Below, in pieces: positions 21,221 to 29,578 of a stretch of DNA of 64,000 nucleotides (the first letter of the stretch is position 1; each line of letters opens with the position of its first letter). The notes under the pieces are model-generated. The model was not told the origin of the DNA and did no database searches. It saw nothing but the letters and a program-made list of their open reading frames with translations. This DNA comes from Oceanispirochaeta sp. GTDB taxonomy: Bacteria; Spirochaetota; Spirochaetia; DSM-2461. The position numbers and the translations under genes are program-made. The DNA lies in the NCBI GenBank assembly GCA_963666275.2, contig CAXXOA010000002.1, forward strand, positions 512,001 through 576,000. The letters are read 5' to 3'.

Positions 21221-22219
21221 CTACTGAAAATCAATCAGTTCAATATCAAAGATCAGCCAGGAATCGGGAGGGATGGGGCCGTATCCTCTCTCTCCATAGG
21301 CCAGTTCGGGGGGGAGGACTACAGTCCTCTGTTCTCCCGGCTGCATACTCAGTGCGGTTTCAACCCAGCCGGGGATAACGCCGTCTTCGCCCAGAGTAAA
21401 CGAGAAGGGTTCTCCCCGCATATAGGAGTTGTCGAACTCCTGGCCTGTGACAAGTTTCCCTGAATAGTGCATCTGAACAGTATTCCCGGGACGGGGCTTG
21501 GCTCCCGAACCTTTTCTGAAGACTTTGTAATAGATTCCTGTTTCACTCACCTGAAGGTCTTCTCCCAGCTGGTCCAGAATGGCCGCAACACGGGGATTCT
21601 CTTCGGCGAAGAGCTGACGGTTTTTCTCTCTGGCCGCAGAGATCAGAGAGGCCACCGCCTCTTCATCGGGTCTGAAACTCTGGGCATCTGATCCGATTCG
21701 CATGATTTCGATAGAAAGATCATCATCCTGTTTTATCTTGGGAAGGATCTCTGCTCCCCTGATAAGCTTACCGAACACTGTGTATTTTGAATCAAGAAAA
21801 CTGTCTCCCTGAATCAGGATAAGAAATCGGCTTCCACTATCTTCGTTTTTCCGGGATTCCATCATCAGGGCGCCCGGTTCGGAGGAGCTGAAACTGCCGG
21901 TCTGCTCCCGGGGAAAGGTGTATTCCTCACCTCCCTGTCCGGATACAGGGGATGCCCCTGAAAACAGGGCATACCCTTTGACAACCCGGGAGAATGAGAG
22001 ATTATCATTCAAGGCGGATTCCGCATTCCCTTCTGCCTGAGCAACAAAGTTTGATACCGTCAGAGGAAGGTTCCGGTAATCCAGCTGATAGATCAGATCT
22101 CCCCGGGGGGTGGACAGGCGGGCATATATCCCCTCTGTCAGATCAGAGCTTTCTTCCCCTGTCAGAAAAAACGGGCTGATCAGCAAGGCAATAAGGATAG
22201 GCAGGATTCGTTTCTTCAT
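21221..22219 (-). CDS. Secreted cyclophilin-FKBP two-domain PPIase (divergent cyclophilin domain)
   Basis: Signal peptide MKKRILPILIALL; FKBP motifs (MHYSG, FDNS, VIPGW, PPELAYG, IPPDSWLIFDIEL); degenerate cyclophilin motifs. Confidence 0.88.
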   Translation of the reverse strand: MKKRILPILIALLISPFFLTGEESSDLTEGIYARLSTPRGDLIYQLDYRNLPLTVSNFVAQAEGNAESALNDNLSFSRVVKGYALFSGASPVSGQGGEEYTFPREQTGSFSSSEPGALMMESRKNEDSGSRFLILIQGDSFLDSKYTVFGKLIRGAEILPKIKQDDDLSIEIMRIGSDAQSFRPDEEAVASLISAAREKNRQLFAEENPRVAAILDQLGEDLQVSETGIYYKVFRKGSGAKPRPGNTVQMHYSGKLVTGQEFDNSYMRGEPFSFTLGEDGVIPGWVETALSMQPGEQRTVVLPPELAYGERGYGPIPPDSWLIFDIELIDFQ

Positions 22220-22247
22220 AATAATCTCCTTTTTCTGCAGGCTATAT

Positions 22248-23279
22248 TTAGAAATCCAGAAGTTCCACTTCAAAAACAAGCCAGGCATTGGGAGGAATGA
22301 CTCCACCGGCTCCGCGGCTTCCGTATGCCAGTTCGGGAGGAAGGATAATGGTCCGTTTTTCCCCTTTTTTCATATCCAGGAGGGTTTCATCCCAGCCCCG
22401 GATAACCTGTCCCACACCAGCCTGCAGTTCAAAGGGAGTTCCTCTCTGAACAGAGCTGTCAAATACTTTCCCGTCCAGGAACATTCCTGTGTAATGCGCG
22501 GTCACAGTCGTTCCGGCGGCAGGTTTATCTCCGCTGCCCTCTTTTTCAATAATGTAGCGGATTCCCGATTCGGAAACTTCTGCACCGGGCCATTTGGCAT
22601 TGATCTCTTCCAGAACAGCCTTATTGGCTTCTTCCATCTTTTTCCGTTCCAGCTCGGCAATGTCTTTCTGATATTTATCAAAAGCCGCCTGATCATTCTG
22701 GAAGGCTTCCGCTTCGGATCCTACACGGATGATCTCCAGCTTCTCGATAAGGTCGTTCTGTTTGATCGCATCCACAACATTCTGACCTTCTACAACATGA
22801 CCGAAAATGGTGTGTTTTCCCTGGAGCCAGGGGGTTTCCACATGGGTTATGAAAAACTGGCTGCCGTTGGTCCCGGGACCGGCGTTGGCCATGGCCAGGA
22901 TTCCGGGGCCGTCAAACTGGAGGGAACTGTCGATCTCGTCTCCGAAATTGTAGCCGGGACCGCCTGTTCCGTTGCCCAGAGGATCTCCTCCCTGGATCAT
23001 GAAATTGTCGATCACCCTGTGGAATTTCAGACCGTCATAGTAGGGGCCGTCTTTCATGGATGTTTCCATTTTGCCTTCCGCCAGGCCTGTGAAGTTGATA
23101 ACAGTCAGAGGGGTCTTTTTGTATTCCAGTTCGACAAGAATGTCGCCTCTGTTTGTATTGAAAAGGGCGTAAAGTCCGTCCCCCAGTTTGGATCTGTCTA
23201 TGGCATTTGAACTCATAATAACTGATACGAGCAGCATTCCTGTTAAGAAGAATCTTTTCCGGTTGAATAGCCGACTCAT
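22248..23279 (-). CDS. Secreted cyclophilin-FKBP two-domain peptidylprolyl isomerase
   Basis: [32 protein letters not shown] and [10 protein letters not shown], plus FKBP (HYTG, FDSS, VIRGWDE). Start ATG 23279 with AGGAGG RBS. Confidence 0.94.
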
Positions 23280-23531
23280 ATTTCCTCCTGATAATTGTAT
23301 TGTCTGTAAAGGTAAACAGCCCCGTCCGGATTCTGTTACAGATGGGCAGGATGTTTTCAAAGAGCATAACACTATTGGGAGGCATGAATCAATTCTATTG
23401 AAGAGAGGATTCAATAGGGAATAGGGTTTAATAATTCCCACCCAGATTGTAAATACTCGGGTTTCTGCTGTCGTAACTGATCAAAGCTTTTGATCCATCC
23501 GGGGATAAACAGAAATTGAGGGGATCTCTTT

Positions 23532-25049
23532 CTACTTCAGGGAATAAACTGTAAGATCAGAGAAACGGGTCCCCAATATCGCTGTGGAACCATCAGAAGA
23601 GAGTTCTGCCAAAGACGGTTCGAAGTTCATTTCTCCTGTCAGCGGGATCTTTGCCTTTTGGGTCCAGTTTGAGCTGCTTCCTGTGTAGATATAAGCCAGA
23701 TCTTCTTTATTTGAGCCCACAATAGCGGTAGAACCATCTGAAGAGAGGCTGACCGAGAGGCCGTAGCCCTTTGCCGTCTCTGGGAGTTTTACAGTCTCGG
23801 TACAGTCTGACCATGAGGAGGGGGAGTAAAGATAGGCTCCGCCGTTCCTGGACGCCGTACTGTCGCCTTTTCCGACAAGAGCCGTAGATCCGTCCGCAGA
23901 AAGGCTGACAGAGTAACCGAATCCGTCAAAGGGCGAACCATCAGAGGCCGTGAGTTTTGCTGTTTCTGTACAGTCTGTCCAGAGAGAGGAGGTAAATATA
24001 TAGGCTTTCCCCCGTCCGTCTTCGAGATGTCCCGTTCCGATTAAAGCTGTCTGCCCATCGGCAGACAGGCTGACAGAAAACCCCAAGCCATCATCTGGTG
24101 CCCTATCAAAAGCTGTCAATTCTGCGGTTTCCGTGCAGTCTGACCAGGAGGAGGACTGGAAAATATAAGCCGCTCCTCTATTACTGTTAATAGATAGGGC
24201 CCCGACAAGAGCGGTTTTTCCATCCCCGGAAAGACTGACCGCGCAGCCCAGTTCTGCATCCGTTTCCCGGTCAGTGGTTGTCAGCTTTGCCGCCTGAACC
24301 CAGGTGGCGCCTGATCTTGTAAAAATATAGGCCGCGCCCGCCCTATCGACGTCATAGGTCTCATTGATAGAATCATCACCCATAGCTCCGATCAGAGCTG
24401 TATTTCCGTCTGCCGAAATACTCACTGAACATCCGAATCTATCCTTTGTAAACCCATCAGAGGGTAGCAGTTTTGCATTCTGTTCCCAGCCCGTGGAGGT
24501 TTTCGTATAGATATACGCTGCCCCGGCGTAAGAGCCGTTTCCACTGTCTCTGCTGTCTCCGATTAAAGCCGTTGTGCCGTCAGCAGAGAGACTGATTGAA
24601 TCACCGGAAACTGAAAGGTCCTCTCTGTAATGGATGGAAACAGATACCGAATCAGAATCGGTTGTTTTGCCGTCATTCACACTGAGAGTAAATGTGTAAT
24701 CTCCTTCCGCCAGATCTGGAGTGATTGTAAAGCTGGCAGCCCTAGTGTTGCTGTCGGTCAGATCTACTGATGTGGGATTTGCGGCAGAAGGTTCCCAGGT
24801 ATATGTTGCCGAAGTATCTTCATCACTGATGGAACCGGAAAGAGTTATTGTCTGCCCCAGAGCTGTCCCGATCTGATTTTCACCGGCAGAACAGGTTAGG
24901 GTCGTTTCTTCATCTGATTTTTCCAGATCCGAGAGAAGCTCTCCCATGGGGCTTCCGCATCCGGCTGATAGGATCAGGATGATGCCGGAGAAAAAAGTTA
25001 AAGCCGCGAATTTACTTAAAGTCCATGATGAGTATCTATATGAGTTCAT
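23532..25049 (-). CDS. Lipoprotein with Ig/PKD-like domain and seven FG-GAP-type beta-propeller repeats
   Basis: Lipobox LSAG-C; GDYTFTLSVNDG Ig-like segment; seven repeats of the form FGxSVSLSxDGxTALxG. Confidence 0.85.
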   Translation of the reverse strand: MNSYRYSSWTLSKFAALTFFSGIILILSAGCGSPMGELLSDLEKSDEETTLTCSAGENQIGTALGQTITLSGSISDEDTSATYTWEPSAANPTSVDLTDSNTRAASFTITPDLAEGDYTFTLSVNDGKTTDSDSVSVSIHYREDLSVSGDSISLSADGTTALIGDSRDSGNGSYAGAAYIYTKTSTGWEQNAKLLPSDGFTKDRFGCSVSISADGNTALIGAMGDDSINETYDVDRAGAAYIFTRSGATWVQAAKLTTTDRETDAELGCAVSLSGDGKTALVGALSINSNRGAAYIFQSSSWSDCTETAELTAFDRAPDDGLGFSVSLSADGQTALIGTGHLEDGRGKAYIFTSSLWTDCTETAKLTASDGSPFDGFGYSVSLSADGSTALVGKGDSTASRNGGAYLYSPSSWSDCTETVKLPETAKGYGLSVSLSSDGSTAIVGSNKEDLAYIYTGSSSNWTQKAKIPLTGEMNFEPSLAELSSDGSTAILGTRFSDLTVYSLK

Positions 25050-25053
25050 TGTA

Positions 25054-25626
25054 TCAATCCTTTGTCTGGTTATTCAGAGAGACCAGTTGGTATTTCACAC
25101 CGAGAGAGAGGGTCGGGCACTGATAGCTGTCATCCGATTCAAAGAGAAAAATGTAACCGGGAGTGCAGGATAGACTGAACTTCCCGCTTAATTGAAAGTC
25201 CAGGGAGCAGCCGGCACTCAATACGCCCTGAAGGCCTTCGCTCCGGCCGGATTCGGAGTTATTAATCCAAAGGTAGCTGATACCCCCTCCCAGGAAGGGA
25301 ATAAGGGCAAATCGTTCAGTAACAGGCAAGCGCCACCCCGCTTCTATCAGCGGCATGAACATTGTCATGCTTTTAAGCTGATCTTCTTCCGGAATAAATG
25401 TAAAAAAACCGACTGTAAATCCCAGTCCCAGACCTGTTCCGGCAATTCCGGAGTATTCACATCCTATATTTCCTCCCAGACCCAGGGGAGCGACATCGGC
25501 AAAATCTCCGGTCATAAAGAGACCCGCCGTTTCGGCTGTGATATTTACCTCCTCTGCTGAAAGGGCAGAGAAAAAAATGAGCCATATTAAAGGGGCTGCA
25601 ATAAGAAGCTTGTTCAGGTTTATCAA
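25054..25626 (-). CDS. Small outer-membrane beta-barrel protein
   Basis: Signal peptide (ALSA), alternating amphipathic strands, PFLGGG, LSLGVKYQL; TTG start with GGAGG RBS. Confidence 0.72.
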   Translation of the reverse strand: MINLNKLLIAAPLIWLIFFSALSAEEVNITAETAGLFMTGDFADVAPLGLGGNIGCEYSGIAGTGLGLGFTVGFFTFIPEEDQLKSMTMFMPLIEAGWRLPVTERFALIPFLGGGISYLWINNSESGRSEGLQGVLSAGCSLDFQLSGKFSLSCTPGYIFLFESDDSYQCPTLSLGVKYQLVSLNNQTKD

Positions 25627-25841
25627 AGATCTGGTCCTCCGGATGATGAAATCAATAGTTTATAAATGAACAATACATTATTTTCAAAAGTGTGCATACA
25701 CTTCTTATTGGTGGAGGCTCTAAAATCTTAATATGCCGTTTGTGGATGTTTATTTAAATCTGATCTCGTTCTAACACAAATCAGTCAGCAAGCTATGTTG
25801 AAACCGGGAAAATCAAATGATCCCTCTGATCTCTCTCTTTC

Positions 25842-25870
25842 TTGACAGGAAATCCCCAAGTGGCTAAAAT
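25842..25870 (+). promoter_or_regulatory. sigma70 promoter of the pheST leader
   Basis: TTGACA (25842-25847), 17-nt spacer, TAAAAT (25865-25870). Confidence 0.85.
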
Positions 25871-25880
25871 ATTTCACAAT

Positions 25881-25967
25881 ATGAAAAAGCCCGTATTCTT
25901 TTTTTACTTTTTTAATTTCTTTTTCTTTTTCAGCTTTACCGACAGGAAGAAGCCCGGGCTTGGTTAA
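25881..25967 (+). CDS. Phe-rich attenuator leader peptide (PheM-like), MKKPVFFFYFFNFFFFFSFTDRKKPGLG
   Basis: 28 codons, 11 of them Phe within codons 6-19; lies between the promoter and a terminator directly upstream of pheS. Confidence 0.88.
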   Translation: MKKPVFFFYFFNFFFFFSFTDRKKPGLG

Positions 25968-25980
25968 GGAACGGTAGTTC

Positions 25981-26036
25981 AAGAGAGCCGCAGAGAGTTT
26001 CTTCAGACGAACGAAACTTACTGCGGCTCTTTTTTT
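25981..26036 (+). terminator. Attenuator (intrinsic terminator) upstream of pheS
   Basis: AGAGCCGCAG (25984-25993) pairs with CTGCGGCTCT (26021-26030); inner AGTTTC/GAAACT stem; followed by a T run. Confidence 0.88.
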
Positions 26037-26106
26037 GCCATATAAAAAATCCAAAAGCCGGTTAGCCCTCAACGGAAGGGACCCGGTAAAATATGAGAGG
26101 TCCGGA

Positions 26107-27150
26107 ATGGAACAAAATCTGGAAGATCTTAAGAAGGAGTTTGCCCAGGCCATTGAATCGGTCACTGACCGGTCTGCCCTGGTAAACCTGAAAGCCGATT
26201 ACCTTGGAAAAAAGGGAAAGCTCAATGCTATCCTCAAATCACTGAAGGATGCCTCCCCTGAGGTTAAAAAATCCCTTGGTATGAAGTCCAATCAGCTGAA
26301 GGAAGAGATCCTGGCGGAAGTGGATCAGAAAATGACTCAGCTGGAAACAGCGGAGATCAATGAAAAACTACTGAAAAACTGGCAGGACGTTTCTTTCAGG
26401 AATTCAATCCGTGATCAGGGGCTCAATGCCGCAGGGTTTCACCCGGTCTCTCTCATACAGAGAGAACTGGAGGAAATCTTCCAGTCTATGGGTTTCTCTA
26501 TTCTGGACGGCCCCCATATCGAAAATGAATACTATAACTTTGAAGCTCTTAACATACCGGCGAGTCATCCCGCCAGGGACATGCAGGATACCTTCTGGTT
26601 TACCGATAAAAAACATCTTCTCCGGACCCATACTTCCAACATGCAGATCCGGGGTATGGAGATGCACAAGCCTCCCTTTAAATTCGTAGGGGCCGGTAAG
26701 GTTTTCCGCTGTGAGACCCTGGATGCCAGCCACGAGGCAGCGTTCCATCAGATGGAGGGAATGATGGTGGGAAAGGATATTTCCGTTTCCCATATGATTC
26801 ACTTCCTGAGAACCCTTCTGTCGGAGATCTTCAAAAAAGAGATCAATGTCAGACTCCGTCCCGGATTCTTCCCCTTTGTAGAGCCCGGATTCGAGCTGGA
26901 CTACGAATGTTTGCTCTGCGGCGGTAAAGGCTGCAGCGTCTGTAAACAGGTAGGATGGGTCGAAGCTCTGGGTTGCGGAATGGTCCATCCCAATGTGCTG
27001 GAAGCCGGCGGGATTGATCCCAAAGAGTGGAACGGCTTCGCCTTCGGTATCGGTGTGGACCGTCTGACCATGATGCGCTATCACATTGACGATGTAAGGT
27101 ATCTCCATAGCGGGGATCTGCGGTTTTCAGAACAGTTCAAGGCCTACTAG
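26107..27150 (+). CDS. pheS: Phenylalanine--tRNA ligase alpha subunit (bacterial type)
   Basis: HPARDMQDTF, LLRTHTS, FHQMEG, FPFVEP, GCGMVHPNVL and GFAFGIGVDR motifs. Start ATG 26107 with GAGAGG RBS. Confidence 0.97.
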   Translation: MEQNLEDLKKEFAQAIESVTDRSALVNLKADYLGKKGKLNAILKSLKDASPEVKKSLGMKSNQLKEEILAEVDQKMTQLETAEINEKLLKNWQDVSFRNSIRDQGLNAAGFHPVSLIQRELEEIFQSMGFSILDGPHIENEYYNFEALNIPASHPARDMQDTFWFTDKKHLLRTHTSNMQIRGMEMHKPPFKFVGAGKVFRCETLDASHEAAFHQMEGMMVGKDISVSHMIHFLRTLLSEIFKKEINVRLRPGFFPFVEPGFELDYECLLCGGKGCSVCKQVGWVEALGCGMVHPNVLEAGGIDPKEWNGFAFGIGVDRLTMMRYHIDDVRYLHSGDLRFSEQFKAY

Positions 27151-27160
27151 GAAGGGAAAT

Positions 27161-29578
27161 ATGAAGATAAGCTTAGATTGGATTAAAGAATTCACCGATA
27201 TACCATCAGATATAACAGCCCAGGAACTGGGTATGAAATTCACTCTTTCCACCTGTGAGGTTGAGGGAGTGGAAGCGACCAACGAGCATATGGATGCCGT
27301 AACGGTTGCTCAGATCACAGCTATTGAGCCCCATCCCGATGCGGATAAGCTGAACCTTGTCTCTTTTAAGACGGCAGAGGGTGAAAAAAAGGTTGTCTGC
27401 GGCGCTCCCAATGTGGCAGTGGGACTGAAAGTTCCTTTTGCTCCCATAGGAACCACCCTGCCCGGCGGATTCACCCTGGAACCCAAGAAGATCCGGGGTA
27501 TTCTCAGCGAAGGTATGCTCTGTGCTGAAGATGAACTGGGACTGGGAGATGGTCATGAGGGACTTCTCGTCCTTCCCGAGGATGCAGTTATAGGTACAAC
27601 CATGAGTGAACTGATGGGACTGAAAAAGGATGTCCTTCTGGATATCGATAATAAGTCCATTACCCACAGACCCGACCTCTGGGGCCACTACGGTATGGCC
27701 AGAGAGTTTGCCGCGGTTTTTAAAAATCCCCTGAAGAAGCCTTTCAGTGACGAGTGGATGGCAAAAATGCGGGGATATTTCACTTCCGATGCTTCTCCGG
27801 TTACCATCTCGGTTGAAGAGGGCTCTGCCTGTCTGGGATACCTGGGACTGAGCGTCGACAATGTTACTGTCAAGCCGAGCCCCTCCTGGATGCAGCAGCG
27901 TCTGATCGCCTGCGGCCTGCGGCCCATTAATAATATTGTTGATATTTCCAACTATGTGATGCTGGAACTGGGGCAGCCCAACCACCTTTTTGACCGGGAT
28001 ACGATCCGGGGAGGCAGGATCATTGTCAAAGAGATGGGAGAGGAAATCACCTTTACCACTCTGGATGAGATGGAACGAAAGATCCTTCCCGGTGATACCA
28101 TGGTCTGTGATACCGAAGGCCCTTCGGTCATCGGCGGTATTATGGGCGGACTCACAAGCAGTGTGAAAGAGGATACCAGCAGAATCTTCATCGAAGCGGC
28201 GAACTGGATCGATGCCAGGATCCGCCATACATCCACCAGGCTGGGACTGAGAACAGATTCCAGTCAGAGGTATGAGAAATCCCTGGATACCAATCAGCTT
28301 GAAAAAGCAGTTCTCAGGATCCTGGAACTGGTCCTGGAAAGCTGTCCCGAAGCGAAAGTGGTGGGAAAAATTGAATCGGACGGGATTATTCCCACTCCGG
28401 AACTTAAAATCTCTCTGGATTCTGCAAGGGTAAACTCCATTCTGGGGACAAGCCTGAGTGCGGCGGAAATCACAGAGAATCTGGAAGCTCTGGATTTTAT
28501 TGTGGAACCTGCGGGGGATCTGCTGATGGTCACTGTTCCCAGTTTCCGTGCCACCAAGGATGTGGAAGTGGATGCGGACCTCATCGAAGAGGTGGGAAGA
28601 GTCTACGGTTACGACAAACTTGTTCCCCAGGCTCCGCTCAGTGCCGTTTCTGCTGTGAATCTGACTCCGGCTAAAAAAATTCAGAGAAAGGTTCTGGACT
28701 ATATGGTGTACAGAGGACAGGCTCTGGAAGTCTATACCTATCCCATGGTGGGAGAGAAACTTCTGGATCAGGCTATGTGGCCTGTCAGAAATGAGAGCCT
28801 CAAACTGGTGAATGCCATCAGCCCCGAGCATGACAGGATGCGTCCTTCCATGATTCCCAGTCTTATCCAGTCCGCCTCTCTGAACCAGAAAAACTGGAAC
28901 AGTTTCAGAATGTTTGAACTGGGACGCTCCTACAGGGAAGATGAAAAAGAGTTCTCCCGGGAACTCTATCAGCTGGGTGCGGTTTTTTATGACAGAAAAG
29001 GGTCTCCCTTTCTGGATGCGGCTAATGTGATGGAAGGACTTCTCAATTCTCTGAACCTGCCTTTCCGTATCAGCGCATCCTATAACCCGGCCAATTCTCT
29101 GCTTCCTGAAAACTGGGCCGGTCTGCACCCCACGGACTTCCTGGACATTCAGGTAATGGGCAGAAGCTGCGGATTTGTTTCAACCATTCATCCCCTGGTG
29201 TGCCGGAACTTTAAAATCAAGGGGAATCTTGTCATGGCTGTTCTGGACCTCACATCCTTTCAGGATAAGGAGATGAAGGATAAAGCCAAATACAAACCTC
29301 TTTCCCGTTTTCCCTCTTCCACCTTTGACTGTACCGTTGTGGCTGATACCAGAACTCCGGTTGAGGATATTGTCAAAGCTCTGGGCCGCCTGAAAATGAA
29401 GGAACTGGACTGGGTTAAAATAGCCGATGTTTTCACTCTCAGCGAAGAGCAGAAAAGCGTGACTGTAAGAACATCATTTTCCGATCCTGAAAAAACCCTT
29501 TCCGGAGATTTTATTCGTCAGGCGGAAGACAAGGTCGTCTCTACCCTCAGAGATGCGGGATTCCCCCTGAAAATGTAG
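27161..29578 (+). CDS. pheT: Phenylalanine--tRNA ligase beta subunit (bacterial type)
   Basis: HPDADKL/VVCGAPN OB domain, B3/4 (RPINNIVDISNYVMLELGQP), DLIEEVGRVYGYD and a C-terminal anticodon-binding domain; 805 aa. Confidence 0.97.
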   Translation: MKISLDWIKEFTDIPSDITAQELGMKFTLSTCEVEGVEATNEHMDAVTVAQITAIEPHPDADKLNLVSFKTAEGEKKVVCGAPNVAVGLKVPFAPIGTTLPGGFTLEPKKIRGILSEGMLCAEDELGLGDGHEGLLVLPEDAVIGTTMSELMGLKKDVLLDIDNKSITHRPDLWGHYGMAREFAAVFKNPLKKPFSDEWMAKMRGYFTSDASPVTISVEEGSACLGYLGLSVDNVTVKPSPSWMQQRLIACGLRPINNIVDISNYVMLELGQPNHLFDRDTIRGGRIIVKEMGEEITFTTLDEMERKILPGDTMVCDTEGPSVIGGIMGGLTSSVKEDTSRIFIEAANWIDARIRHTSTRLGLRTDSSQRYEKSLDTNQLEKAVLRILELVLESCPEAKVVGKIESDGIIPTPELKISLDSARVNSILGTSLSAAEITENLEALDFIVEPAGDLLMVTVPSFRATKDVEVDADLIEEVGRVYGYDKLVPQAPLSAVSAVNLTPAKKIQRKVLDYMVYRGQALEVYTYPMVGEKLLDQAMWPVRNESLKLVNAISPEHDRMRPSMIPSLIQSASLNQKNWNSFRMFELGRSYREDEKEFSRELYQLGAVFYDRKGSPFLDAANVMEGLLNSLNLPFRISASYNPANSLLPENWAGLHPTDFLDIQVMGRSCGFVSTIHPLVCRNFKIKGNLVMAVLDLTSFQDKEMKDKAKYKPLSRFPSSTFDCTVVADTRTPVEDIVKALGRLKMKELDWVKIADVFTLSEEQKSVTVRTSFSDPEKTLSGDFIRQAEDKVVSTLRDAGFPLKM

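Follow-up and report, generated by a model that had tools for sequence, protein, structure and literature searches.

The region upstream of pheS in this Oceanispirochaeta genome very probably functions as a classical ribosome-coupled transcription attenuator of pheST, which would be switched on when charged tRNA-Phe is scarce, judging from its sequence and from modelled RNA folding. A Phe-rich leader ORF lies before pheS and pheT, followed by a predicted intrinsic terminator and, according to masked folding, a mutually exclusive antiterminator. Positions refer to the window, the whole 64,000-nt stretch of DNA that was analysed, and the features are listed below.

25842..25870, + strand, sigma70-type promoter-like site (-35 TTGACA 25842-47, 17-nt spacer, -10 TAAAAT 25865-70)
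25877..25880, + strand, predicted 5' UTR of 3-4 nt (TSS inferred at 25877-25878 from the genome-wide ATG peak 6-7 nt past -10 boxes)
25881..25967, + strand, leader ORF of 28 codons without a Shine-Dalgarno site (from sequence)
25896..25937, + strand, Phe sensing tract, 11 UUU/UUC codons within 14 (codons 6-19; from sequence)
25882..25966, + strand, predicted protector (1:2) helix, -15.4 kcal/mol (25882-84:25964-66, 25887-93:25955-61, 25896-903:25944-51)
25946..26004, + strand, predicted antiterminator (2:3), -19.3 to -19.6 kcal/mol (from masked folding)
25983..26036, + strand, predicted intrinsic-terminator-like hairpin (3:4), -29.8 kcal/mol, with U7 tract (hairpin 25983-26031, U7 26030-26036)
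26095..26101, + strand, pheS Shine-Dalgarno site GAGAGGT (from sequence)
26107..27150, + strand, pheS, bacterial-type PheRS alpha, 347 aa (TIGR00468, 291 bits, cut-off 237)
27161..29578, + strand, pheT, bacterial-type PheRS beta, 805 aa (TIGR00472 pheT_bact, 644 bits, cut-off 403)

The leader ORF and its surroundings

The initial annotation had described a 28-codon ORF with 11 Phe codons within 14 consecutive codons, and the sequence bears this out, with the Phe codons at codons 6-19. Among 55,958 ATG-started ORFs of 8-45 codons in the host genome (G000), only this leader attains 10 Phe in 12 codons. The exact leader peptide was absent from a collection of 15 billion proteins in which PheS is present, and a Pfam search assigned it to no family. 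A longer in-frame ORF from TTG 25842 was rejected, as its start falls inside the -35 box. The pheS product scored 200 bits against the PRK04172 model, under the cut-off of 350, and among named sequences its nearest match, at 95%, is the PheS of an Oceanispirochaeta MAG. The gene upstream of the leader is divergently oriented on the opposite strand, with an intergenic region of 250 nt. Further along the reverse strand of the window, visual inspection of the translations of two tandem ORFs (21221-23441) suggests peptidyl-prolyl isomerases of a cyclophilin-FKBP fusion type, and the product of 23532-25049, 505 aa long, contains a PKD-like domain and five FG-GAP repeats.

Promoter and start of translation

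The promoter TTGACA-17-TAAAAT followed 10 nt on by an ATG without a Shine-Dalgarno site, as noted initially, was confirmed: the site at 25842-25870 matches the consensus at 11/12 positions and has no second example within 25000-27000 (shuffled sequences average 2.4 looser matches there), and ATG 25881 sits 10 nt past the -10 box. Promoter-like sites were found for 39/40 homologous leaders (the set is defined below). The leader ATG, defined as the earliest in-frame start codon 4 nt or more beyond the -10 box, lies at 8-12 nt in 39/39 leaders with a promoter call and at 6-7 nt in 0/39. Shine-Dalgarno-like pairing with the own genome's 16S tail (≤ -5 kcal/mol) occurs at 2/40 leaders vs 40/40 pheS starts.

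Genome-wide, G000 has 1,412 promoter-like sites. Counted by distance from the -10 box, long ORFs most often have their ATG at 6 or 7 nt (36 and 40 sites), compared with 0-6 sites at 0-5 nt; the counts of 20, 14 and 15 at 8, 9 and 10 nt form a shoulder, and short ORFs show no ATG peak after -10 boxes. The 76 long-ORF ATGs at 6-7 nt form a strong leaderless-gene signal, and the peak points to common leaderless initiation in this genome and to a TSS at 25877-78. When the Deinococcus-type criterion is applied (TSS at or within 1 nt of the AUG), the ATG spacing of 8-12 nt against the genome peak of 6-7 nt gives a predicted UTR of 1-6 nt. The leader start is probably short-leadered and free of a Shine-Dalgarno site, not strictly leaderless, and as such ordinary for this host. 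The nearly leaderless start proposed at the outset is supported by the spacing between -10 box and ATG and by the absent Shine-Dalgarno site, with the predicted 5' UTR now 3-4 nt. Leaderless mRNAs and very short UTRs are described as common in Leptospira in the accessible part of a published study (PMC5243855).

Attenuation might also work as proposed while the leader is translated from a longer mRNA off an upstream promoter. The TSS used here is predicted only and the intergenic region reaches 250 nt back to the divergent gene, but the near-consensus promoter 8-12 nt ahead of the ATG in 39/39 leaders with a promoter call, together with the peak of long-ORF ATGs in G000 just past -10 boxes, makes this arrangement unlikely.

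Predicted RNA structures and masked folding

The leader RNA folds with z = -4.5 vs 200 shuffles. The strong terminator reported 70 nt before pheS holds up, the predicted hairpin (-29.8 kcal/mol) with its U7 tract ending 70 nt ahead of the pheS ATG at 26107. A simple terminator scanner did not list the hairpin 25983-26031, likely because its long, bulged stem lies outside the scanner's pattern. A hairpin with a U-tract is predicted between leader and pheS in all 40 leaders; in L013, L119-L121 and L123 the terminator was reassigned, since the automatic call had taken the antiterminator hairpin.

The predicted protector helix pairs the leader's first codons and hides the 5' arm of the antiterminator, and the pairing AAGCCCG (25887-93) with CGGGCTT (25955-61) seen earlier is present in the minimum-energy fold. 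The predicted antiterminator consists of an outer helix, in which GAAGAAGC (25946-53) pairs with GTTTCTTC (25997-26004), and an inner helix of GGCTT (25957-61) and GAGCC (25985-89), and it encloses the hairpin GAAC 25969-72:GTTC 25977-80. The GGCT:AGCC pairing of the initial annotation stands as the inner part, whereas the outer helix had been missed. The CTTG:CAAG pairing proposed alongside it overlaps GGCT:AGCC, so that the two are alternative registers, and the fold uses GGCTT:GAGCC.

Folding with and without ribosome-masked segments, as suggested initially, yielded the three predicted states, a Phe-stalled ribosome freeing the antiterminator. Without a ribosome, the protector (25882-25903:25944-25966) and the terminator form; with a ribosome on the Phe codons, 25946-61 pairs with 25985-26004; and a ribosome at the stop covers region 2. 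When the transcript was cut at the terminator loop, at least half of the terminator 5' arm was sequestered under the Phe-stalled mask in 40/40 leaders, and the arm was freed under the ribosome-at-stop mask in 36/40. E. coli pheM gave the same outcome in the masked-folding test. Genus g3 (L014, L016) fits poorly, as its ribosome-at-stop state does not free the terminator arm. The best helix to the terminator arm begins a median of 13.5 nt downstream of the longest run of Phe codons, a distance close to one ribosome footprint. In this leader the ORF contains region 2; in genera g5 and g68 and in Desulfopila region 2 directly follows the stop, as in E. coli.

In the proposed mechanism, transcription would begin 3-4 nt ahead of the ATG and the ribosome would load without a Shine-Dalgarno site. 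At low Phe-tRNA the ribosome would pause at codons 6-17, cover region 1 and leave region 2 (25946-61) free; region 2 would then pair with 25985-26004 before the terminator 3' arm is made, and RNA polymerase would enter pheS. At ample Phe-tRNA the ribosome would reach the stop at 25965-67 and cover region 2, and the terminator would form. If no ribosome has loaded, region 2 is predicted to be paired with the first codons in the protector while the terminator forms, so that the default would be off. The earlier suggestion that a Phe-stalled ribosome frees the antiterminator and a ribosome at the stop permits termination thereby gains support from both conservation and the folding models.

At equilibrium on the full-length leader with a stalled ribosome, the terminator wins in 34/40 models and the switch appears in 6/40, this leader not being among the six. 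The terminator is likewise favoured at equilibrium on full-length E. coli pheM RNA. Read-through would therefore depend on folding kinetics, as for E. coli pheM. The antiterminator here is the weakest of its own genus (-19.3 vs -24.9 to -32.3 kcal/mol), and its two-arm duplex, taken for this leader alone, is not distinct from shuffles (z -1.3, 22/200).

Conservation of the leader among Spirochaetia

A search for short-type PheS in 301 Spirochaetia genomes gave 68 matches at E ≤ 1e-60. Upstream DNA was examined for 68 genomes, namely 67 of these plus G015; G284, at a contig edge and matching PheS only from residue 78 on, was left out. ORFs with at least 5 Phe in 12 codons were flagged in 37 genomes, and one of them, L143, was dropped for having no promoter or terminator. 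The poly-Phe leader thus precedes bacterial-type pheS in 36/68 Spirochaetia genomes (12 genera, 7 families), including 10/10 genomes of the own genus with enough upstream DNA (L008 has 52 nt). These 36 and the named loci L053, L038, L043 and L056 make up the 40-leader set; most of the other flagged named loci came from genomes in this count, and L039 was left out. Since kin are not independent, such counts are descriptions and not tests. The initial annotation had proposed a test for conserved Phe codons and stem covariation in relatives. Their pheS upstream regions show a conserved poly-Phe ORF and, in an alignment of 11 leaders outside the own genus, stem covariation, with leader, promoter spacing, antiterminator and terminator kept across 12 genera.

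Long-type PheS loci carry the leader in 0/6 cases, and none was accepted among 38 Bdellovibrionota loci with upstream DNA, where L082 was flagged and then rejected. The flagged ORF of L057 was rejected too: L057 and L082 have no promoter and are far from pheS or have no terminator. A phylum-wide pattern search of 401 genomes gave hits about as often as its reversed control did, failed to recover this leader, and is uninformative on Leptospirae and Brachyspirae. In genus g2, the pheS leaders of L148, L163, L149, L023 and L141 are degenerate, sharing a V-Y-S-x-F motif with 2-3 Phe only; L148 and L163 retain the promoter-like site and terminator, and L149 and L023 have no U-tract terminator. They are possibly a low-sensitivity or decaying variant.

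The own-species duplex beats the other-genus mean for the antiterminator in 35/40 leaders and for the protector in 36/40. In alignment A2 (11 leaders outside the own genus, g1), two-sided changes were counted at 4/14 antiterminator pairs and 5/9 protector pairs. The antiterminator changes beat 500/500 shuffles on cells, pairing reached 83% vs 39-58% in slid controls, and the protector changes likewise outdid shuffled and slid controls, in leaders that are mutually related and whose kinship can itself beat shuffles. Pairs were counted on A2 only, as in the MAFFT alignment A1, which includes this leader, the subgroups do not line up with one another at the antiterminator arms. At the level of sequence, the predicted protector and antiterminator helices show lineage-specific complementarity.

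These data also bear on another arrangement, in which a fixed, partly read-through terminator gives a constant pheST level and the antiterminator is too slow against a stronger terminator. The predicted energies (-29.8 vs -19.6 kcal/mol) and the terminator's formation at equilibrium in 34/40 stalled models agree with it, but E. coli pheM has the same equilibrium bias, and the conserved Phe frame, the lineage-specific complementarity of the antiterminator and the footprint spacing would be left unexplained; we consider it very improbable.

The Phe count is highest in the ATG frame, vs either other frame, in 40/40 leaders, which indicates that codons are conserved and not merely U-runs. UTP-sensitive pausing or slippage in U-rich tracts is seen in pyrimidine operon leaders. 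That a real switch here is sensed in this way by RNA polymerase through U-runs, and not through codons, is still less credible: every one of the 40 leader ORFs contains T-runs of 5-10 nt, but third codon positions carry C (245 TTT and 92 TTC, i.e. 92/337 TTC), the ATG frame is the Phe-richest throughout, and the target is PheRS, not a pyrimidine gene. Ribosome-coupled attenuation through the Phe codons is the reading that we retain.

History and probable transfer of pheST

In our PheS trees, which are quick trees with the root of the PheS clade not placed, the enzyme groups with those of Bacteriovoracia, Fibrobacterota and others. Archaeal-type PheRS has been reported for Spirochaeta, Borrelia and Treponema (PMC3191353), and the 68/301 Spirochaetia genomes with a short bacterial-type PheS qualify the view, as given in the available part of that source, that the archaeal-type enzyme unites Spirochaetaceae. 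Desulfopila sp. IMCC35008 is the only 1/81 genomes of its family with this PheS type (67% identity; 77 others 40-52%). In the quick tree of 35 rows its PheS clusters with those of the spirochaete genera g5 and g68 (SH-aLRT 99-100%), and the AU test rejects its monophyly with eight native Desulfocapsaceae PheS (p-AU 0.0017). The Phe leader of Desulfopila is of the g5 type; at 19 native Desulfocapsaceae loci pheS lies behind rplT and none has a Phe leader. The same PheS is present in Desulfogranum marinum, where the leader has decayed. At this locus (L047) the promoter-like site and terminator are retained, ATA replaces the relatives' ATG, and the relic holds 3 in-frame Phe and no clear antiterminator arm. 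On these comparisons, the simplest reading is that pheST and its attenuator likely moved from a spirochaete into Desulfopila, so that a regulatory RNA likely moved between phyla together with its operon.

A more tentative picture, which we hold to be possible and on balance doubtful, joins these threads. The leader would be a one-shot cassette free of a Shine-Dalgarno site, in which an imperfect 1-6 nt UTR and a co-varying helix burying the first codons leave a loading window of ~80 nt that sets basal read-through. The pheST genes travelling with it would be Bacteriovoracia-like; in part of Spirochaetia they would have displaced the archaeal-type enzyme, and they would have passed, leader included, into Desulfobacterota.

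Other leaders in the host genome

A second, Phe/Tyr-rich leader of 33 codons lies at G000:C2:1134972 (-) (L165 8872-8973; L173), with a promoter-like site 10 nt before its ATG and a terminator-like hairpin with a complementary leader segment, and precedes an HMGL-like aldolase and a lipoate-protein ligase. This leader is conserved in G004, where the aldolase match carries an internal stop, and the gene occurs in 2/11 genus genomes; the aldolase may serve aromatic amino-acid metabolism. At G000:C1:1244834 (+) (L166/L177-L193), a PRK06855 aminotransferase is preceded by a poly-Ala leader that has 7 Ala, a terminator and a modelled antiterminator; 6-7 Ala were found in 12/17 loci. A Leu-rich leader, again with terminator and modelled antiterminator, precedes a short LeuA at G000:C1:2533712 (+) (L167/L175, L176) and is also found in G004.

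Comparison with known systems

The Rfam model RF01859 (Phe_leader) scored 24.6 bits (E 0.1) at this leader against a gathering score of 55, so that it is not a member; unrelated loci in the same genome score up to 28.5, and the match is noise-level. No T-box riboswitch (RF00230) matched in 25600-26300. The one T-box found in G000, at C1:2467985-2468242 (-) (L125/L168; 95.3 bits, over cut-off), precedes thrS, indicating that both tRNA-sensing systems coexist in this genome.

In the literature searched, mostly open-access, no account of a spirochaete pheST attenuator was found; the available parts of PMC1262725 and PMC4833913 mention pheST attenuation only for gamma-proteobacteria and, for Spirochaetales, only generic leader genes. 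The novelty claimed initially was overstated. In Deinococcus deserti, 14 putative attenuator peptides have been annotated on leaderless mRNAs of tRNA-synthetase and biosynthesis genes, one being a short putative leader ORF directly upstream of pheS as here (PMC4007540, accessible part). That organism belongs to another phylum and those mRNAs start at the AUG or 1 nt upstream of it, compared with a predicted 3-4 nt here; the likeness noted is one of position. The polycysteine sORF attenuators of mycobacteria (Ms5788A; bioRxiv 10.1101/834739) are likewise described as leaderless, amino-acid-sensing short ORFs, but sense Cys, have no intrinsic terminator and control how the next gene is translated. 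In E. coli pheL-pheA (Gurvich et al., PMC3082878), a Phe-codon run also decides between terminator and antiterminator, whereas the target is biosynthetic and the leader has a Shine-Dalgarno site; outside Proteobacteria, the part of that paper available names only Bacteroides and Desulfobacterium, and no spirochaetes.

The closest counterpart is E. coli pheM-pheST (b1715; RF01859), which shares a Phe-rich ORF before pheST and a protector, antiterminator and terminator in like order. The two differ in ORF size (14 codons, 5 of them Phe, in pheM, against 28 and 11 here) and in context: pheM starts after a longer 5' leader and is located behind thrS-infC-rpmI-rplT, whereas the leader studied here is preceded by a promoter of its own and a predicted UTR of 3-4 nt, and its region 2 falls within the ORF. 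The 40 sequences form a leader family, and no Rfam model scores above threshold for this leader. They are a natural system for testing how ribosome and RNA polymerase stay coupled on a leader that has no Shine-Dalgarno site. By analogy, the mechanism is a textbook one that would work like that of E. coli pheM, and it is the host group that is new for it, extending ribosome-sensed attenuation of a tRNA synthetase to free-living spirochaetes.
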